Source: a virus (Duplodnaviria > Heunggongvirae > Uroviricota > Caudoviricetes). Taken from it: a DNA stretch of 6,294 nucleotides. The stretch lies in the IMG/VR virus record IMGVR_UViG_3300011952_000016. One strand, given 5' to 3'. Shown piece by piece: positions 1 to 6,294 of the stretch. A program made the translations under genes and the position numbers. The notes below the pieces were generated by a model. The model was given only the letters and a program-made list of their open reading frames with translations, was not told where the DNA came from and searched no databases. Every line of letters starts with the position of its first letter. Position 1 is the stretch's first letter.

Positions 1-398
1 GAGCGATTCCGCCTGTTTACCGATATCGCCATAAAGCGCGGCCAGTGATTCATCAACGCGGGTGAGCGACAGCGTAAAATCAATTTTTCGGGGTGTGCCG
101 TCTGCAAAGAAAATACTCCCTGTTTCACTCACCTTACTGATGACATACATGCCGTAAATCATGCCGGTGCCATCCAGCAACGGCCACGCCCGACCTTCCT
201 CTGCCATCAGCCTGAGCGTGGTCATCGTCAGCTTGCCGCCGGTCAGTTCGGGATAAAGCACACCGGCCAGCGTGATGTTTTCCTCGCCAACGCCGAGAAA
301 CTGGAATTTGACGGCCAGCGATAATCAGATTCACGCTGCATGGTCTGGTGTGGCAACGTCTGGCGCATAAAAACAAACATACCTAACGCGAGCATCAT
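1..398 (-). pseudogene. U: P2-type tail protein gpU, 5' portion (3' end lies beyond window start); reading frame broken near 300-305
   Basis: ATG at 398-396 sits 9 nt downstream of GGAGG (412-408) and 15 nt after the tape-measure stop (TAA 415-413). It encodes MMLALGMFVFMRQTLPHQTMQRESDYRWPSNS, then reaches TGA at 245-243 after 51 codons. The rest of a gpU-like sequence (KFQFLGVGEENITLAGVLYPELTGGKLTMTTLRLMAEEGRAWPLLDGTGMIYGMYVISKVSETGSIFFADGTPRKIDFTLSLTRVDESLAALYGDIGKQAESL) is in a different frame, open from 324 down past position 1. Confidence 0.75.
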
Positions 399-412
399 TT
401 TTCGTCACCTCC

Positions 413-2640
413 TTAACCGTCATGCATCATGCTGGCACGGGCGCGCGCACGTTTATCCCGCTCGTATTTTTCGAGCGCATCCTGTAACTGGCGGTCAAGC
501 TGTGTCCCCGGCGCAGTACCACCCGTCAGGCTGATGTGATATTCGTTTTTACTCTGGTCCACATAAGAGCGGCCAGCCGGTGCCGTAACCGGCTGATAAG
601 CCTGATAACCTGCATAAGAGCTGGTCGCCGGAATATAACCACCGGTGCCATACGTGGCGGCATGAGTTCTGGCGGCGGTCTGGTCAAGTGTGTCTGACTC
701 TTTGTTGATAACACCGAGTTTTTCCAGTACCCAGTCAATACCGCTGCGCAGTTTGTTGAACGCATTAAGCGGCAGCATCAGCGCGTCAGCCAGTGCCTGC
801 CCGAACATGACGCCCGTGTCACGGCAACGGTTCAGGGTGTCCTGGGTGGCTTTGACCGGGGCAATCAGGTTTTTAAACCACTGCCACGCGGCCTGTAACT
901 TTTCACCCAGCCAGTTAAACAGCGGCTTAAGTGGCGTGAACAGTTCCCCCACCGGCGCAAATGCCGCTTTCAGCCCTTCAACCACACCGCCAAAGAATGC
1001 GCTGACAGGCTCCCAGTATTTACGGATAAGCAACGCCCCGGCGACAATGGCAGCCACCACGGCCACAACCGGCCAGCTAATCGCACCGATGGCCGTCATA
1101 ACGGCACTACCAACCGTCGTGAAGATTGCCCCCATTGCGCCTGCTGCCGCGATAATGGCATTGATGCCGGTGATAACCGGCCAGGCTACAAGGCCAATGG
1201 CACCGATGACACCAGTCAGCGCCAGTGCACCGCCGGCAATGATGCCGATGGTTGACGCCAGTGATTTGTTTTTCTGTATCCAGCCGTCGAGTTTTAACAC
1301 ATACTTTGTGGCCGTCTGCGTGAGCTTACGCAGTGCGCCTTCCTGCTGGTCAAACAGGTCAGTCCCCACCGCCTCATAAGCGGACTGAAACTCCTTAAAG
1401 TCGCCGCCGAGGTTATCCTGCATGATATTTACCAGCTCGGCGGTCTTCCCGTCTGAGGCTTTAAACGCAGCAGTCAGTTTGTCCAGCTTTCCGGTTGAGG
1501 CGGCAGTCATCAGCACGGCGGCGGCTGAGCTGGCCTCCTCCCCGAAAATAGTTTTCATGTATTCAGCCTGCTGGGCAGTACCGAGCCGGTTTTTCTCAAA
1601 ACTGGCCTGCATTTCTTTCAGAATGGTAAATATTGGTCGGGTATTCCCCTTACTGTCTGAGGTTTTCACGCCAAGCTCTTTGAGTGCATCCCATGCTTTT
1701 CCCGTTGGTGCCTGCAGGCGACTTAACACGGCACGGCTTCCCGTCCCCNNNNNNNNNNNNNNNNNNNNNNNNNNNNNNNNNNNNNNNNNNNNNNNNNNNN
1801 NNNNNNNNNNNNNNNNNNNNNNNNNNNNNNNNNNNNNNNNNNNNNNNNNNNNNNNNNNNNNNGCGCACCGGCTGCATCATCTGCCGAGGCTGCGGTATTG
1901 TCGCCGAGCTGGCGCGCCTGCTTGCGTAGCGCGGCCATTTCGGCGGAGTCTTTTGCCACACCGAGCACAGCCTGCAATTCTGAGTTTTTCTGCGCAAACT
2001 CATAACCGGGCATCAGCAGCTTAACTCCGGCCATCGTTCCCGCAGCTGCAATCCCCACACCGGCAGCGCCCACTGAGGGCATATTTCCGGCCAGTTCCTT
2101 TCCTGCCTGATAACGCTGTTTGACTGCGTTAAGTTTTGCCTGTTGTGCACTGACACGCGCCAGCGCGTCACGCTGACGGTTAAGCTGTGCGGTGGTTTCA
2201 CTGATACGGTTTTTCAGTCCCTGCTCATCATGTGCAAGATTGCGGGTATTAATTCCCACAGCGGCCAGTTCCCGCTGCTGGCGTTTAACGGAATCTGTCA
2301 GGCGGTTATATTTCGCCTGTAAGTCCTCCGCCGCACGCTTTGCGGATTCCAGCACTTTCGCCTGAGCACGGGTCGGACGTTCGGTGTTTTTAAACTGTGT
2401 GGCAAGGGCTTCGGCTTCCTGTCGAGCCTTTTCAAGTGCATGACCAGTCACGGCGAGCTGTGCACTGGTCTTGCGGAATCCCTCAATACGGGATGCGTGA
2501 CCGTTCAGCTCGCGCAGTGATTTTTGTGTTTCCCGGATATCCCCCGACAGCGACTTGCTCGCTGTACGGATGGATTTAAACGGGCGGGATGCCTGGTCAA
2601 CAGCCCTGAGCAATACCTGTAATTTTACATTGTTACTCAT
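413..2640 (-). CDS. T: phage tail tape measure protein (P2 gpT-like), interrupted by a 114-nt N-run
   Basis: ORF 1723..2640 starts MSNNVKLQVLLRAVDQASRPF and is coiled-coil-like and rich in A/Q/R/K. ORF 413..1729 continues with a glycine/alanine-rich hydrophobic segment and the C-terminal part, ending TAA 415-413. The two pieces are separated by N 1749..1862 and are in different frames across it. The ATG at 2640-2638 overlaps the E' stop (ATGAGTAA). Confidence 0.9.
1749..1862. other. run of 114 ambiguous bases (N), a gap or masked segment inside the tape measure gene
   Basis: Directly visible in the sequence. Flanking coding frames differ by one nucleotide, so the N length is not the true length. 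Confidence 1.
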
Positions 2641-3060
2641 TCGTGTTTCCGCTTCGCCGGAGCGCCTTTTCGCGCCATGTGATGAGTTCGGTCAGGCTCA
2701 TGGGATACAGTTCTGATGGCGGCCAGTGAAATATCACTGCCACATCCGCCATCAGGTCATCGACCGAGAGATTTTTCGGAAACGTCACTGCACCGAGTTC
2801 GGCGACAAAAAACCGACCACCTTACCGGCCAGCGCCACAAGGTCAGGCAGCTCCAGCGCGGCGACCTCCTGCTCAGTCAGCATCGGTGCCGTCATGCGCG
2901 GCAGCACTTTAATCAGTGCATCGACTTCGGAGTTTGCGACCGCAGCCAGACTGACACCGCGCAGCGTCCCGGCATTGGGTTTCATCAGCGTGACCTGTTC
3001 GATAACCTGCTCACCACGCTTGACCGGATTGTCCAGGGTAATCACATTTTCTTTGTTCAT
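2633..3060 (-). CDS. E+E': gpE+E' tail assembly chaperone made by programmed -1 ribosomal frameshift (predicted 142 aa)
   Basis: Slippery heptamer T_TTT_TTG at 2812-2806 in the E frame. The -1 frame downstream is open for 57 codons (VAELGAVTFPKNLSVDDLMADVAVIFHWPPSELYPMSLTELITWREKALRRSGNTNE) and ends at TAA 2635-2633, overlapping the tape measure ATG. This is the same arrangement as lambda G/GT and the reported P2 E/E' frameshift. Confidence 0.75.
2785..3060 (-). CDS. E: tail assembly chaperone gpE (91 aa)
   Basis: ORF MNKENVITLDNPVKRGEQVIEQVTLMKPNAGTLRGVSLAAVANSEVDALIKVLPRMTAPMLTEQEVAALELPDLVALAGKVVGFLSPNSVQ with stop TGA 2787-2785. It sits between the tube and tape measure genes, as P2 E does. 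Confidence 0.9.
   Translation of the reverse strand: MNKENVITLDNPVKRGEQVIEQVTLMKPNAGTLRGVSLAAVANSEVDALIKVLPRMTAPMLTEQEVAALELPDLVALAGKVVGFLSPNSVQ
2806..2812 (-). other. -1 programmed frameshift slippery site TTTTTTG (X_XXY_YYZ)
   Basis: Minus-strand sequence GGT TTT TTG TCG at codons 83-86 of E. Classic heptamer 22 nt before the E stop. Confidence 0.75.
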
Positions 3061-3088
3061 GGTTTTCTCACTTCTGAATCAGGGTTAA

Positions 3089-3109
3089 CCGGTCAGCCAG
3101 GCTGACCGG
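3089..3109 (-). other. perfect GC-rich stem-loop (9-bp stem CCGGTCAGC/GCTGACCGG, 3-nt loop) in the FII-E intergenic region; candidate attenuator or mRNA-stability element
   Basis: Inverted repeat read directly from the sequence, starting 7 nt after the FII stop (TGA 3119-3117) and about 28 nt before the E start. No U-tract follows it on the transcribed strand, so it is not a canonical intrinsic terminator. Confidence 0.5.
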
Positions 3110-3116
3110 ATGAAAA

Positions 3117-3685
3117 TCACAGGCCGATATTGCGGCGGTGTTGCTCCAGCCGGTCGACGCCGTTCACCTTCTCAATCATGTTGATGGTGTCGATTTCGAC
3201 CAGCTCCTTACCGTCCATCGTCAGCCGGAAATAGGTGCAGACCACGGAGATTTTCGACTCGGTGTCTTCTCCCTGTTTACCCTCGCCGGTGTCGATTTCT
3301 TTCTGACGTCCACGCATGACCACTTCAACGGCCACCGTTTCGCCGGTATCGTCGCGCTGGTAAGAGCCGGTAAAGCGCAGCGGCACGGCAGTCGCACCCC
3401 ACTGCGTAAGCACCAGGTCATCNNNNNNNNNNGTACGGCATCCACACCGGTTGCGGCGTAAAGCTCCCAGATAACCGAATCCGGGAAGCCCCCGAGCGAC
3501 CACTCCATTGACAGCGCATCGTCATCAAGGCCGAGATCTACCGGGGCGCTGCCGTTCATCCCCGCACCGCGATAGTTTTCGAGCTTACGGGTCAGTTTTG
3601 GCAGCGTGACGGACTTTGCAACGCCCTGATAGCTGTAGCCGTTCAGAAAGACGTTCATTAACTTGAGTTTGCGCGGCATTGCCAT
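3117..3685 (-). CDS. FII: major tail tube protein (P2 FII-like), interrupted by a 10-nt N-run
   Basis: ATG 3685-3683 is preceded by GGAG overlapping the FI stop. The N-terminal 84 aa are MAMPRKLKLMNVFLNGYSYQGVAKSVTLPKLTRKLENYRGAGMNGSAPVDLGLDDDALSMEWSLGGFPDSVIWELYAATGVDAV. The C-terminal 101 aa (DDLVLTQWGATAVPLRFTGSYQRDDTGETVAVEVV...VDRLEQHRRNIGL) follow the N-run in another frame, ending TGA 3119-3117. Confidence 0.9.
3423..3432. other. run of 10 ambiguous bases (N) inside the tail tube gene
   Basis: Directly visible. The frame is not preserved across it (one base more or less would join the two halves). Confidence 1.
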
Positions 3686-3697
3686 CGGTCAGGCTCC

Positions 3698-4760
3698 TTA
3701 ATTGCTGTTAACCGAGGTGACCAGATTTGCCAGGTATTTATCGGTAATACGCTGGCGCAGGGTCAGGTTTTCAAGAGGAGGCACCGGGGTATAGTCGTTG
3801 AGGGTTTCCGCATCGTTGGATCCTTCGCTGAACCAGCAGGTCGCATCCACGATATAGCCGTTTGTTTTCAGCTCACGGAATTTGGCATTGATGCCGTCAA
3901 CGATGTCGCGAATCAGCGTTGCGGTGATGGGCTTGTCCACCGCCCACATGTGCGCCTCAGCCATCGTGTCGGCCAGCACCTGCGCGGTGCGGGTGTAGTT
4001 TTCAAAGAGGAACAGCGGGTCATCAGAGCAGGTACGGTTACCCCAGAAGCGGAAACCGTCGCGGCGAATCAGCGTAGTGACGCCTGACTCGTTAAGCAAG
4101 TCAGCATCGGTGCCGGACTCCTGCAAATCCCAGAATACAGAGGCGCTGATGCCGGTAACACCGTTCACCCCGACATTGGACAGCGTTTTATGCCAGCCCT
4201 GCTCCTGGTCGATTTTAGCGCGCAGCCCCAGTGCACGGGCGGTGGCATACGCGGTGACGGTGGTACTGGTGACCGTATCCCATGCGAGGAAATCCGGCCA
4301 GATGACCATCAGCTCACGCTGGCTGAAATTCTGGCGGTAGGCTTTCACCTCGGAAATGGTCTTACAGCCCCATGCGCTGATATATCCGAAAGCGCGCAGC
4401 TTCTGACAGACTGATGCCAGTGCAACAGCCACCTCTTTGGTATCCAGCCCCGGCACACCAAGAATACGCGGTTTAACACCGGTCGTCGCCGGTGCCGTCT
4501 TCCACACGTACGACAACGGTGACCGGTTTTGACTGGTCGGAGATGGCCTGCAACGATGCCGCCAGCGTGCCTTTTTTACCGGCCTTTGCAATTGCGCTCT
4601 GCACATTGGTAATCAGTACCGGTTTATTGAGGGGGAAGGTTTCGACATCCGCATCGCTGGCCGTACAGACCATGCCGACAATGGCCGTGGATACGGTGGA
4701 AATGACGCGGGTGCCGTCGTTAATCTCCAGCACCTGCACGCCGTGATGATAGTCACTCAT
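3698..4760 (-). pseudogene. FI: tail sheath protein (P2 FI-like) with a disrupted reading frame (apparent out-of-frame internal deletion)
   Basis: ORF 4473..4760 encodes the sheath N-terminus [38 protein letters not shown]...[10 protein letters not shown], then RC and a stop (TAA 4475-4473). The remainder ([40 protein letters not shown] ... [14 protein letters not shown], stop TAA 3700-3698) is in a second frame beginning at about 4477. The total span is 1063 nt, which is not a multiple of 3. RBS GGAG at 4772-4769. Confidence 0.8.
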
Positions 4761-4792
4761 CCGTTTAACTCCGTGGTTAATGGGTGAGTGGT

Positions 4793-4845
4793 ATTTTCAG
4801 TTGTGCCGGAGATGTCAGGCTATTTGTCCCGGTTGGCTAATCAAC
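4793..4845 (-). promoter_or_regulatory. putative late promoter for the FI-FII-E-T-U operon (P2 P_F equivalent): imperfect dyad GTTGATTAGCCAAC plus a -10-like GAAAAT
   Basis: Dyad at 4845-4832 lies about 50-55 nt upstream of a -10-like hexamer GAAAAT (4798-4793), which is about 33 nt upstream of the FI ATG. This geometry resembles activator-dependent P2 late promoters (element centred near -55). An exact TGT-N12-ACA match was not found. Confidence 0.3.
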
Positions 4846-4860
4846 AGCACAACCACCGGG

Positions 4861-4886
4861 AAAGAAAACGCGGGCAATCAGCCCGC
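4861..4886 (-). terminator. rho-independent terminator after the tail fibre assembly gene (end of the fibre operon)
   Basis: On the minus strand: GCGGGC-TGATT-GCCCGC hairpin (4886-4870) immediately followed by GTTTTCTTT (4869-4861), starting 6 nt after the Tfa stop (TAA 4895-4893). Confidence 0.7.
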
Positions 4887-4892
4887 CTGTGT

Positions 4893-5471
4893 TTATTGCG
4901 GTAGTTCCGGCCATTCAATATCCGGGGCATTTTCCGGCTGAACGCGATTCAGTAGCACACGGTATTTTTTCCAGTGTGTCAGGCTTAACTTTTCTTCCTC
5001 GGTAGCCATATCTAAATCGACAGCATCCTGCAGCGTGGCAATAATTTCACCTGCATATGCAATCTGCTCTTTCTTCTGAGACTCCGCCGCTCTGACAAGC
5101 GCATCACGTTCTGCATTCTCATCATTCACCCACGCATTTCCGTCCCATTTCTGATAATCCCCCTCCGGGGAAATAGCTGTCACGTCTGGAGGTAATACGC
5201 CAAGTTCAGAAATATAAATGGCTGCTCCTGTTTTCGTTTCGTAGACGGTCTTTCCGCGATGGTCTTCCATCAGTTCCCATTTCATTTCATCTGCATTGAA
5301 AACGGCTGCATAACCAGCAGGAATATCAGGTGGTGCAATATCTGTACTGTTTGCAGGCAGGCCAGTATACGGCGGAATATATGCATCACTTTCGCCAATA
5401 AACTCATTGGTTCCATTAAGTAAATTGAAAGCGCGGATAGTTTGTGCTTCTGCACTCATTCTGAAAGCCAT
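4893..5471 (-). CDS. tfa: tail fibre assembly chaperone (Tfa; P2 gene G equivalent)
   Basis: 192-aa [81 protein letters not shown]... with the conserved Tfa N-terminal region. Its ATG shares a base with the tail fibre stop (TAATG at 5473-5469). Confidence 0.9.
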
Positions 5472-6294
5472 TATGCAAGCCTCACAATATAGTTAAATGC
5501 GATGTTTTTGACGGTGTTTTCTGTATTACCTGTAGCATTAACGGTAATAGAGTGCCCGTGTGAGCCAATAGCAACCGTGTGTGAATGTGCACCAATACCA
5601 ACCGTATGATTATGTGCACCAATATCTACCGTGTGGGCATGATTCCCGGCAGCTCCTGATGTGCCATTAAACGATGGGTTGTCAAAGCCTGTTTTATTAG
5701 TATTGGCATTCCCTCTGTAAATGGTATGTGTATGGTTACCAGTGGTATTAGTGGTTTTTGTTCCGTAGTTAAACGTACTGACTGTCTTCGTCCCGTAATC
5801 AAACGAACTGGTTGTTTTCGTTCCCAAATCCGTATTTGACGCACTGGCGCTGTGAGTATGCGATTTAATCCCGTCCTGTTCCTGTGACAATACAGCACGC
5901 CCACTGGCGGGTTTGCCCTTGATTGTCCAACCGCGCATATCCGGAATAACACCAGAAGGATAGGCTATAGCCAGTTTCGGATATGCTGCCTTATCAAACG
6001 TCTGCCCCTGCATAATTGCATAGCCTGCAGGTGGTGTATCTGATGGCCACGGCAGCGGAACACCTGGCGGAAACGCTTCAATATTTGCCGAGCCGTCAAA
6101 TTTTACGCCGTTAATTGTCCTTGCTGTTTTCAGCTTTGTTGCTGTAGCCGCATTGCCGGACAGTTCGCCTGAAAGACCACCGCTGAATGTCTGTTTCGCC
6201 GCCCATGTCTGAGCTTCGTCAATAATTGGCACACGTCTTGTCGTGATCGTGCGGCTTCCCGGATTTCCTGAAATACGCACCATAAAAAAGCGGT
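5471..6294 (-). CDS. tail fibre protein, C-terminal (distal, receptor-binding) part; 5' end probably beyond the window
   Basis: Frame is open from the window edge (no stop in 6294-6284). The first ATG (6283) has no obvious RBS (T6 run upstream). Contains the fibre motif [21 protein letters not shown], a collar-like segment ([37 protein letters not shown]), GTKT repeats and HxH repeats. Stop TAA 5473-5471. Confidence 0.85.
5540..5647 (-). repeat. four tandem imperfect 27-bp repeats encoding 9-aa HxH units (GNHAHTVDI / GAHNHTVGI / GAHSHTVAI / GSHGHSITV) in the tail fibre tip
   Basis: Verified by codon-by-codon translation of 5647-5540. HxH repeats of this kind coordinate metal ions in the T4 long and short tail fibre tips. 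Confidence 0.85.
5735..5824 (-). repeat. three tandem imperfect 30-bp repeats encoding GTKT-type 10-aa units ([10 protein letters not shown] / [10 protein letters not shown] / [10 protein letters not shown]) in the tail fibre
   Basis: Translation of 5824-5735. The nucleotide periodicity is visible directly. Confidence 0.75.

Follow-up and report, generated by a model that had tools for sequence, protein, structure and literature searches.

Lesions in the tail operon of a P2-like prophage record: scaffolding artefacts and private deletions of possible assembly origin

Results

A P2-like late tail operon

The stretch of DNA analysed here (the window, 6,294 nt) carries, on its minus strand, the late tail operon of a P2-like (Peduovirus) prophage, arranged as H'-G-FI-FII-E/E'-T-U'. 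The genes share one strand and follow the order H-G / FI-FII-E-E'-T-U, and two annotated loci, L001 and L002, are collinear with the window from end to end. The first of these (E. coli AVS0578, NZ_CP124374) is ~97% identical at aligned bases and is the intact reference throughout, and the Peduovirus members P24A7b, P24E6b, P22H1 and P2 are 94-96% identical over 78-97% of the window. Comparisons were made with a panel of 160 related loci and with further sets of 5,426 E. coli genomes and 50,697 phage records. Pfam domains for the tape measure, GpE/TAC, tube, sheath, tail-fibre assembly and tail-collar fibre proteins are present, with matches that exceed the gathering score for every piece but the N-terminal piece of T. 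The collinearity with intact P2-like prophages and the Pfam domains bear out the first-pass annotation of well-conserved P2-like tail genes; the cluster is of an ordinary type, and there is no evidence of anything unusual in it.

All genes lie on the minus strand. The gpU-like tail protein gene (1..398) starts at a start codon at 398, has its 3' end beyond the window and is collinear with the reference CDS annotated as 'phage tail protein' (WP_053884702). The tape-measure gene T (413..2640) spans 2228 bp, as opposed to 2448 bp in the reference CDS, and its C-terminal piece matches PhageMin_Tail. The gene for the gpE tail assembly chaperone (2785..3060) is intact, with a product of 91 aa that matches Phage_TAC_7, and the E' frame of the E+E' frameshift product (2633..2788) matches Phage_P2_GpE (E = 1.6e-22). 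A slippery T6G site (TTTTTTG), read directly from the sequence, is intact at 2797-2803 and, together with the overlapping E' frame, makes up the predicted programmed -1 frameshift site of E/E'. The tube gene FII (3117..3685; 569 bases, 519 in the reference) is split by a run of 10 N, and the sheath gene FI (3698..4760; 1063 bp, 1191 bp in the reference) contains two deletions without Ns, its pieces matching Gp18_domIII_N, Phage_sheath_1 and Phage_sheath_1C. The tail fibre assembly gene G (4893..5471) is intact and encodes a 192-aa protein that matches Caudo_TAP and was not on record in an exact look-up. It is followed, in the short spacer between G and FI (4761-4892), by an intrinsic-terminator-like hairpin on the same strand (4870..4886); this spacer lacks cargo genes in the window, whereas several relatives carry cargo there. 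The C-terminal part of the tail fibre gene H (5471..6294), with matches to Collar and Phage_fiber, continues beyond the window.

Intact P2-like tail operons, such as those of the reference locus, P24A7b (NC_049390) and phage P2, have the same gene order, Pfam domains and E/E' slippery site. The window differs from them in that it lacks segments of 25, 24, 104 and 12 bp, shows 114 N where they have 334 bp, and contains within FII a chimeric insert (38 bases, 10 N and 2 more bases). As written, the essential tail genes U, T, FII and FI are interrupted. Comparison with intact P2-like prophages, the check that the first-pass annotation had proposed, thus located six lesions against the reference rather than the four that had been counted, the in-frame deletions of 24 bp (sheath) and 12 bp (H) having been missed.

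Two N-runs of scaffold origin

The N-runs that had been reported in the tape measure and tube genes are both present. The run of 114 N in T (1749..1862) stands for 334 bp, encoding T residues 260-371; the best-matching panel loci have 334 bp at this place, and one (L015) has 336 bp. It had been listed as not preserving frame. The run itself is a multiple of 3 in length, and the frame is lost because the run is 220 bp shorter than the 334 bp that it represents. The hidden sequence belongs to the most allele-variable 5% of the operon by panel diversity, and the words that the window shares with an ENT90-like phage in this gap are of 22 nt or less and do not explain it. Judged from these lengths, the run is a mis-sized, under-estimated scaffold gap, and since the size is an under-estimate, its effect on the reading frame carries no meaning.

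The lesion in the tube gene is of another kind, because the locus is longer than the reference by 50 bases, not shorter, and the surplus is made up of 38 bases of a foreign allele, the 10 N (3423..3432) and 2 more bases. To the left of an exact 29-mer (3340..3368), a P2-type haplotype (L024) is matched at 200/200 bases, and the adjoining 100 bases agree at 56/100 with an ENT90-like tube allele (L165, IMGVR_UViG_3300031418_000773). The 29-mer is common to the two alleles and is the longest exact word that the window has in common with L165, the next being of 23, 21 and 20 bases. It marks the point of an allele switch, after which the 54 bases at 3369..3422, encoding DDLVLTQWGATAVPLRFTG, are identical to L165 at 53/54 positions and homologous to FII of Erwinia phage ENT90 (NC_019932). 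At 3340-3422, 82/83 bases are those of the L165 tube gene, and the encoded motif DDLVLxQWG..AVPLRFTGSYQRDD has the ENT90-type form of this part of the tube. Elsewhere in the window, identity to L165 is only 68-76%; the ENT90 type is limited to the 54 bases between the 29-mer and the N-run. P2-type sequence resumes at 3433, at codons that the preceding tail already covers. The flanks of the N-run thus encode the same tube segment twice, in two allelic forms, and the two FII pieces cover overlapping positions of the Pfam Phage_tube profile (1-71 and 66-165).

Four private deletions without Ns

The first-pass annotation had also described out-of-frame internal lesions in gpU and sheath FI, and comparison with the reference resolves these into deletions of 25 and 104 bp. 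The translation of U agrees with the reference for residues 1-32 of 159, after which the frame shifts at the junction 302..303, where the 25 bp GGTAGGCATCCCGTTTACCGATACG have been lost with 2 bp of microhomology. The 25 bp are found in all 79 panel loci that span the site, both flanks match the same haplotypes at 196-200/200 bases, and the junction is absent from IMG/VR, the E. coli genomes and the phage records. The frame-breaking 104-bp deletion in FI (junction 4481..4482; 2 bp of microhomology) affects residues 94-128 of 396. Its junction is absent from the GTDB representatives, IMG/VR, JGI metagenomes, the E. coli genomes and the phage records, and an exact look-up of the truncated 95-aa sheath product found it not to be on record.

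The other two deletions keep the frame. In the C-terminal domain of the sheath, a 24-bp deletion (junction 3797..3798; 1 bp of microhomology) replaces KAGKLYIDY with a single N residue; 150 of 151 panel loci have 24 extra bases at this site and the remaining one has 21, and the flanks match one haplotype (L048) at 200/200 and 199/200. In H, a 12-bp deletion (junction 5695..5696) removes GETG, with the extra 12 bp present in 7/7 panel loci that span the site and flanks that match another haplotype (L055) at 200/200 and 197/200. Neither junction occurs in the E. coli genomes or the phage records, and with 0/151 and 0/7 relatives sharing them, the two in-frame deletions were rejected as natural alleles.

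The four deletions are private, none occurring in the 160 related loci, the 5,426 E. coli genomes or the 50,697 phage records. For each of them, one and the same haplotype fits the sequence on either side at 94-100% (188-200/200 bases), so that chimeric joins between different P2-type alleles were rejected, and microhomology at the junctions is 2 bp or less. The surrounding 6.1 kb contains no 1-bp indels and no nonsense codons. Slippage- or hairpin-mediated deletion found no support: the endpoints have no direct repeats of >5 nt or hairpins close by, and the fold z-scores, at about -1.2, fall short of significance. A collapsed allelic bubble was rejected as a general cause: of the lesion sites, only the H 12-bp site (top 2%) and the T gap (top 5%) show high panel diversity, whereas the U and FI deletions do not. 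K-mers shared with the ENT90-like phage do not explain the deletions either, since none of them lie at deletion endpoints.

Most differences from relatives are synonymous by a wide margin. Synonymous and non-synonymous changes in the ancestral frames number 131:26 over U, T, E, FII, FI and G, and the bias is retained past the frameshifts (U 15:1, T 59:12, FI 26:4). Private substitutions number about 20 at most; outside H, 8 of 16 private SNPs are non-synonymous, and in FI the share is 4/7 for private as opposed to 0/23 for shared changes. The private non-synonymous share is compatible with relaxed constraint, and also with rare variants or consensus errors.

Discussion

An intact operon seen through a poor assembly

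What could have produced six lesions in a tail operon that otherwise resembles those of intact prophages? The presence of N-runs marks the record as scaffolded, and the features of the window resemble short-read scaffold artefacts, namely chimeric contig ends, minimum-length N joins and mis-sized gaps, in the switch at the longest shared word, the redundant flanks of the 10 N and an N-run length unrelated to the gap. In the tube gene, the contig left of the Ns passed through the 29-bp word, continued for 54 bases in the tube allele of another phage and stopped there; the next contig takes up the P2-type allele again at codons already covered. A de Bruijn graph with a k of 24-29 would join the two phages at the 29-mer only. 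On this comparison of alleles, the 10-N lesion is an assembly artefact, a scaffold join at which there is no gap at all. The allele switch and the redundant tube codons imply a sample with at least two P2-family phages, at least one Escherichia-type P2-like and one ENT90-like, and a record that is a chimeric short-read scaffold. One apparent lesion thus has an identifiable origin, namely a contig crossing a 29-bp word common to two co-resident P2-family phages. The two N-run lesions do not count towards decay, and the six lesions are not all independent biological events, contrary to what had been assumed of the original four. It had been held, moreover, that the sequence could not decide between decay and a draft assembly; for the N-runs the comparative data do so in favour of scaffold artefacts, and for the deletions without Ns that judgement stands.

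For these deletions, we lean towards an assembly or post-processing error over very recent genuine deletions. The losses of 25, 24, 104 and 12 bp may be products of the same poor assembly or post-processing, and one route would be that, where coverage had small gaps, contig ends were trimmed, abutted or 'closed' with no Ns written. Micro-misassemblies near contig ends and artificial frameshifts in drafts are known (PMC4515008, PMC5596377). The window as a whole, deletions included, is on balance best read as a normal P2-like contractile-tail operon from a fragmented, paired-end-scaffolded short-read assembly, and the underlying prophage is probably intact. This reading has its difficulties. 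N-free deletions with at most 2 bp of microhomology do not look like classical repeat-collapse misassembly, and a simple collapsed bubble does not fit the deleted U and FI segments, which lie outside the allele-variable stretches. A pure de Bruijn or overlap contig has no junction without a repeat of about k bases unless the reads contain it. Given 1-2 bp of microhomology and no Ns at the junctions, some step of scaffolding, trimming or gap closing would have to have made them. The record serves mainly as a caution that pseudogene or 'cryptic prophage' calls from scaffolded drafts can be artefacts.

Genuine deletions and other alternatives

An alternative, which we regard as possible but do not favour, is that the N-runs are artefacts and the deletions without Ns, or at least those of 25 and 104 bp, are genuine and very recent, leaving a freshly inactivated prophage without gpU or sheath. 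Junctions lacking both Ns and k-length repeats resemble the interior of contigs that reads support, non-synonymous changes make up a larger share of private substitutions than of shared polymorphisms (as seen in FI), and bacterial genomes are known to have a deletional bias. However, four private deletions of 12-104 bp in 6.3 kb, accompanied by no 1-3-bp indels or nonsense codons and by ≤20 private substitutions, are unlike natural mutation spectra, in which substitutions and 1-bp indels far outnumber mid-size deletions. A first knockout would also leave no selection for three further hits in the operon, the microhomology is minimal and comes with no slippage repeats, no relative has the deletions, and assembly errors are demonstrable in the same window. 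Were the deletions real, they would add another case of recent inactivation in a P2-like prophage, which is a common and well-understood fate. In both cases, the current understanding of contractile tails and prophage domestication is unchanged.

If all four N-free deletions were genuine, they would amount to a burst of microhomology-poor deletions of 12-104 bp concentrated in the tail operon of a resident P2-like prophage, which we consider very unlikely. Such a burst might follow from repeated nuclease attack (self-targeting CRISPR or restriction) and subsequent alternative end-joining, or from selection against a toxic tail module, and it would represent an unusual, rapid route of prophage inactivation.

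Equally hard to credit, or slightly more so, is that the tube gene is a natural recombinant with an ENT90-type patch, a real mosaic rather than a chimeric join, in which the 10 Ns hide a few bases. P2-family phages are mosaic, and the shared 29-mer could also serve homologous recombination. Against this, the P2-type codons after the Ns repeat the ENT90-type codons before them, so that a heteroallelic partial duplication, out of frame, would have to exist within one gene, and the P2-to-ENT90 switch junction is absent from IMG/VR, JGI metagenomes, the E. coli genomes and the phage records.

Least credible of all is an old, decaying cryptic P2-like remnant, fixed in the host lineage with lesions acquired by neutral drift: multiple lesions in essential tail genes would suit it, but the deletions are private, the haplotypes are otherwise intact with few private substitutions, and small indels and nonsense codons are missing, which together exclude it. 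A cryptic prophage would be expected to share inherited lesions with relatives, and no such lesion was found in the 160 panel loci, the E. coli genomes, the phage records, the GTDB species representatives, IMG/VR or JGI metagenomes; every 80-bp chunk off the lesions fits some intact prophage at 77-80/80 bases. Of the signs of neutral drift, the window shows no nonsense codons, 1-bp frameshifts or IS elements, and the synonymous bias in the ancestral frames is strong even downstream of the frameshifts (private SNPs being 8:8). Known remnants typically have large deletions, IS insertions, nonsense mutations and 1-bp frameshifts that are shared within lineages. If its lesions are real, the window would resemble cryptic or defective enterobacterial remnants in that essential structural genes have lost their frame; it differs from them in having private, mid-size, clean deletions in otherwise pristine haplotypes.

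Two minor observations concern the deletion junctions. Private SNPs lie 25-28 nt from two of them (3822 and 4509), an arrangement with a chance probability of ~0.15 that is not significant. The deletion lengths of 24 and 25 nt equal k-1 and k for a k of 25, within the range of 24-29 implied by the crossing of the 29-mer, and may be taken as a lead only.

Results

Every long ORF of the window lies on the minus strand, and annotated P2-like prophages and phages are collinear with it from end to end. Collinearity and Pfam matches assign, in order of transcription, the C-terminal part of the tail fibre gene H (5471-6294), the tail fibre assembly gene G (4893-5471), the sheath gene FI (3698-4760), the tube gene FII (3117-3685), the chaperone gene E (2785-3060), the E' frame (2633-2788), the tape measure gene T (413-2640) and most of U (1-398). 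Identity to the window is 94-96% for Peduovirus P24A7b, P24E6b, P22H1 and P2. The predicted E/E' programmed frameshift site, the T6G slippery site TTTTTTG at 2797-2803 on the minus strand, is intact, as are both reading frames. Its gene order, sequence identity, domains and E/E' site place the element among the P2-like Peduovirus tail operons, and uninterrupted ORFs are the sole feature of such operons that fails in the window as written. Genes on either side of the E/E' site carry lesions, yet the site itself is undamaged.

Lesions were located by base-level alignment to an intact P2-like prophage of E. coli AVS0578 (NZ_CP124374) and then tested against a panel of 160 related loci, drawn from IMG/VR and from genomes in GTDB. 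This comparison, which the first-pass annotation had proposed, places the lesions in a stretch that is otherwise 96.9% identical to the intact prophage (6,130 aligned non-N bases). The four lesions of that annotation all exist, but its count was too low because it missed two in-frame deletions, and the total is six. U has lost 25 bp at 302/303, which breaks the frame and truncates the product after residue 32 of 159. T carries 114 Ns (1749-1862), and FII carries 10 Ns (3423-3432). FI has an in-frame 24-bp deletion at 3797/3798, in the C-terminal domain, and a frame-breaking 104-bp deletion at 4481/4482, while H has an in-frame 12-bp deletion at 5695/5696. In the ancestral frames, those of intact relatives, no further indels or nonsense codons were found in the window relative to the E. 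coli AVS0578 prophage. The 24-bp deletion removes KAGKLYIDY from a conserved stretch of the sheath that has the same length in 150 of 151 relatives.

The 10-N run was correctly recognized as a lesion but needs a different description, in that the FII locus is 50 bases longer, not shorter, than the reference. The 38 bases left of the Ns encode DDLVLTQWGATAV, ahead of PLRFTGSYQRDD; this is the ENT90-type version of the tube segment (after Erwinia phage ENT90, NC_019932), and to the right of the Ns stands the P2-type form ...DSVIWELYAATGVDAV. The same codons are therefore written twice, in two allelic forms, and the pieces matching the Pfam Phage_tube profile (positions 1-71 and 66-165) are consistent with this doubling. 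No duplicate of the 38 bases was found within the window. An exact search with the tail left of the Ns matched one IMG/VR contig, IMGVR_UViG_3300031418_000773, from an ENT90-like peduovirus. Its overall identity is 81% to ENT90 but only 68-76% to the window. Window and contig have an exact 29-mer in common at 3340-3368. To its left the window is P2-type (200/200 to a P2-type panel haplotype, 56/100 to the ENT90-like contig), and to its right, up to the Ns, it matches the ENT90-like contig at 53 of 54 positions (window 3369-3422; contig 5650-5703). No longer exact word is common to both phage types anywhere in the window; the next in length have 23, 21 and 20 bases. The junction at which P2-type switches to ENT90-type sequence had no match in IMG/VR or JGI metagenomes, nor among 5,426 complete genomes of E. 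coli and 50,697 records of phages.

At the 114-N site, the best-matching relatives have 334 bp (336 bp in one), and on either side the sequence is P2-type and in collinear order. In allele variability across the panel, the masked 334 bp rank in the top 5% of the operon. The claim that this run breaks the frame holds insofar as 220 bp are lost on balance, which shifts it; 114 is itself a multiple of three.

The four N-free deletions are all private to the window. The longer form is present in every panel locus spanning the site in U (79/79), the 24-bp site in FI (151/151) and the site in H (7/7), and all loci that match the flanks of the 104-bp site have the extra 104 bp. The 60-mers spanning the junctions had no match in the E. 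coli genomes and phage records named above. For each deletion a single haplotype extends across the junction, as loci that match one 200-bp flank also match the other (188-200 identities in each). The junctions have microhomology of 2 bp (U), 1 bp (24-bp deletion) and 2 bp (104-bp deletion), and a search of the deletion endpoints for direct repeats or significant hairpins found none. About 20 of ~6,100 bases, leaving out the chimeric tail, lack panel support. In ancestral frames, synonymous to non-synonymous differences from the E. coli AVS0578 prophage are 15:1 in U, 59:12 in T, 9:0 in E, 12:3 in FII and 26:4 in FI, and the synonymous bias is strong even downstream of the frameshifts.

Discussion

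The two allelic forms flanking the Ns in FII, together with the allele switch at the 29-mer, show that the 10 Ns arose as an artefact of assembly. The simplest reading is that a de Bruijn-type contig, with a k that we infer to be between 24 and 29, crossed the shared 29-mer into a second phage and stopped, and that the scaffolder then linked this chimeric contig to the next P2-type contig by a minimum-length N-run. Accordingly, at least two P2-family phages were present in the sample, and the record is a chimeric scaffold. The segment at 3369-3422 is a trace of the second, ENT90-like phage. Because this tube allele is absent from complete E. coli genomes (n=5,426), the sample may stem from a host other than E. 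coli, or it may be a mixture. The length of an N-run in a scaffold is a distance estimate, and thus the loss of frame at the 114 Ns says nothing biological.

For the four N-free deletions, we lean towards an artefact as well. Assembly errors demonstrated elsewhere in the same 6.3 kb favor this origin, as does the size spectrum: four events of 12-104 bp, with few substitutions and without a single 1-3-bp indel or nonsense codon, are not what natural mutation produces. Moreover, no selection for repeated hits would be expected after a first knockout. Private substitutions are located at 3822, 25 nt to the right of the 24-bp junction, and at 4509, 28 nt to the right of the 104-bp junction, and the deletions of 24 and 25 nt equal k-1 and k if k is 25, a value inside the range suggested by the 29-mer crossing. 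This spacing and these sizes hint at contig ends, although the pattern is not significant (chance ~0.15 by our own calculation). Draft assemblies are known for artificial frameshifts and for micro-misassemblies where contigs end (PMC4515008, PMC5596377).

It is possible, if less probable, that the N-free deletions are genuine and very recent. Plain graph traversal could not create N-free junctions that lack a k-length repeat. In addition, half of the private substitutions outside H are non-synonymous (8:8), and in FI the non-synonymous share is 4/7 for private versus 0/23 for shared substitutions, which could mean relaxed constraint but could also come from rare variants or consensus errors. 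Minor alternatives share the little probability that remains. An old, drifting remnant is ruled out by the private deletions, the intact single haplotypes, the few unsupported bases and the strong synonymous bias, and its exclusion is what leaves artefact or very recent deletion as the two options. Whether the deletions prove to be artefacts of draft assembly or the P2-like prophage proves to have been inactivated recently, the outcome is a well-known one and would not surprise a specialist.

The G-FI intergenic spacer (4761-4892) spans a minimal 132 bp and includes a terminator-like hairpin (4870-4886). In other E. coli P2-like prophages this position is occupied by cargo, namely a DGQHR-domain protein, hypothetical proteins and insertions of ISEc12 and ISEc52, and P24A7b has extra ORFs there, whereas in the window this known variable spot is empty. 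Near the C-terminus of H (~5490-5640, minus strand), His-rich HxH repeats, which are typical of metal-binding tail-fibre tips, are intact and common to relatives. Four loci from GTDB representative assemblies (L089, L091, L095 and L155) contain sheath genes of the enterobacterial P2-like type, with an amino-acid identity of 82-91%, although the assemblies are labelled Chryseobacterium sp. 18061, Vagococcus sp. WN89Y and MAG Sporobacter termitidis; contamination or mislabelling of these records is the most likely explanation.
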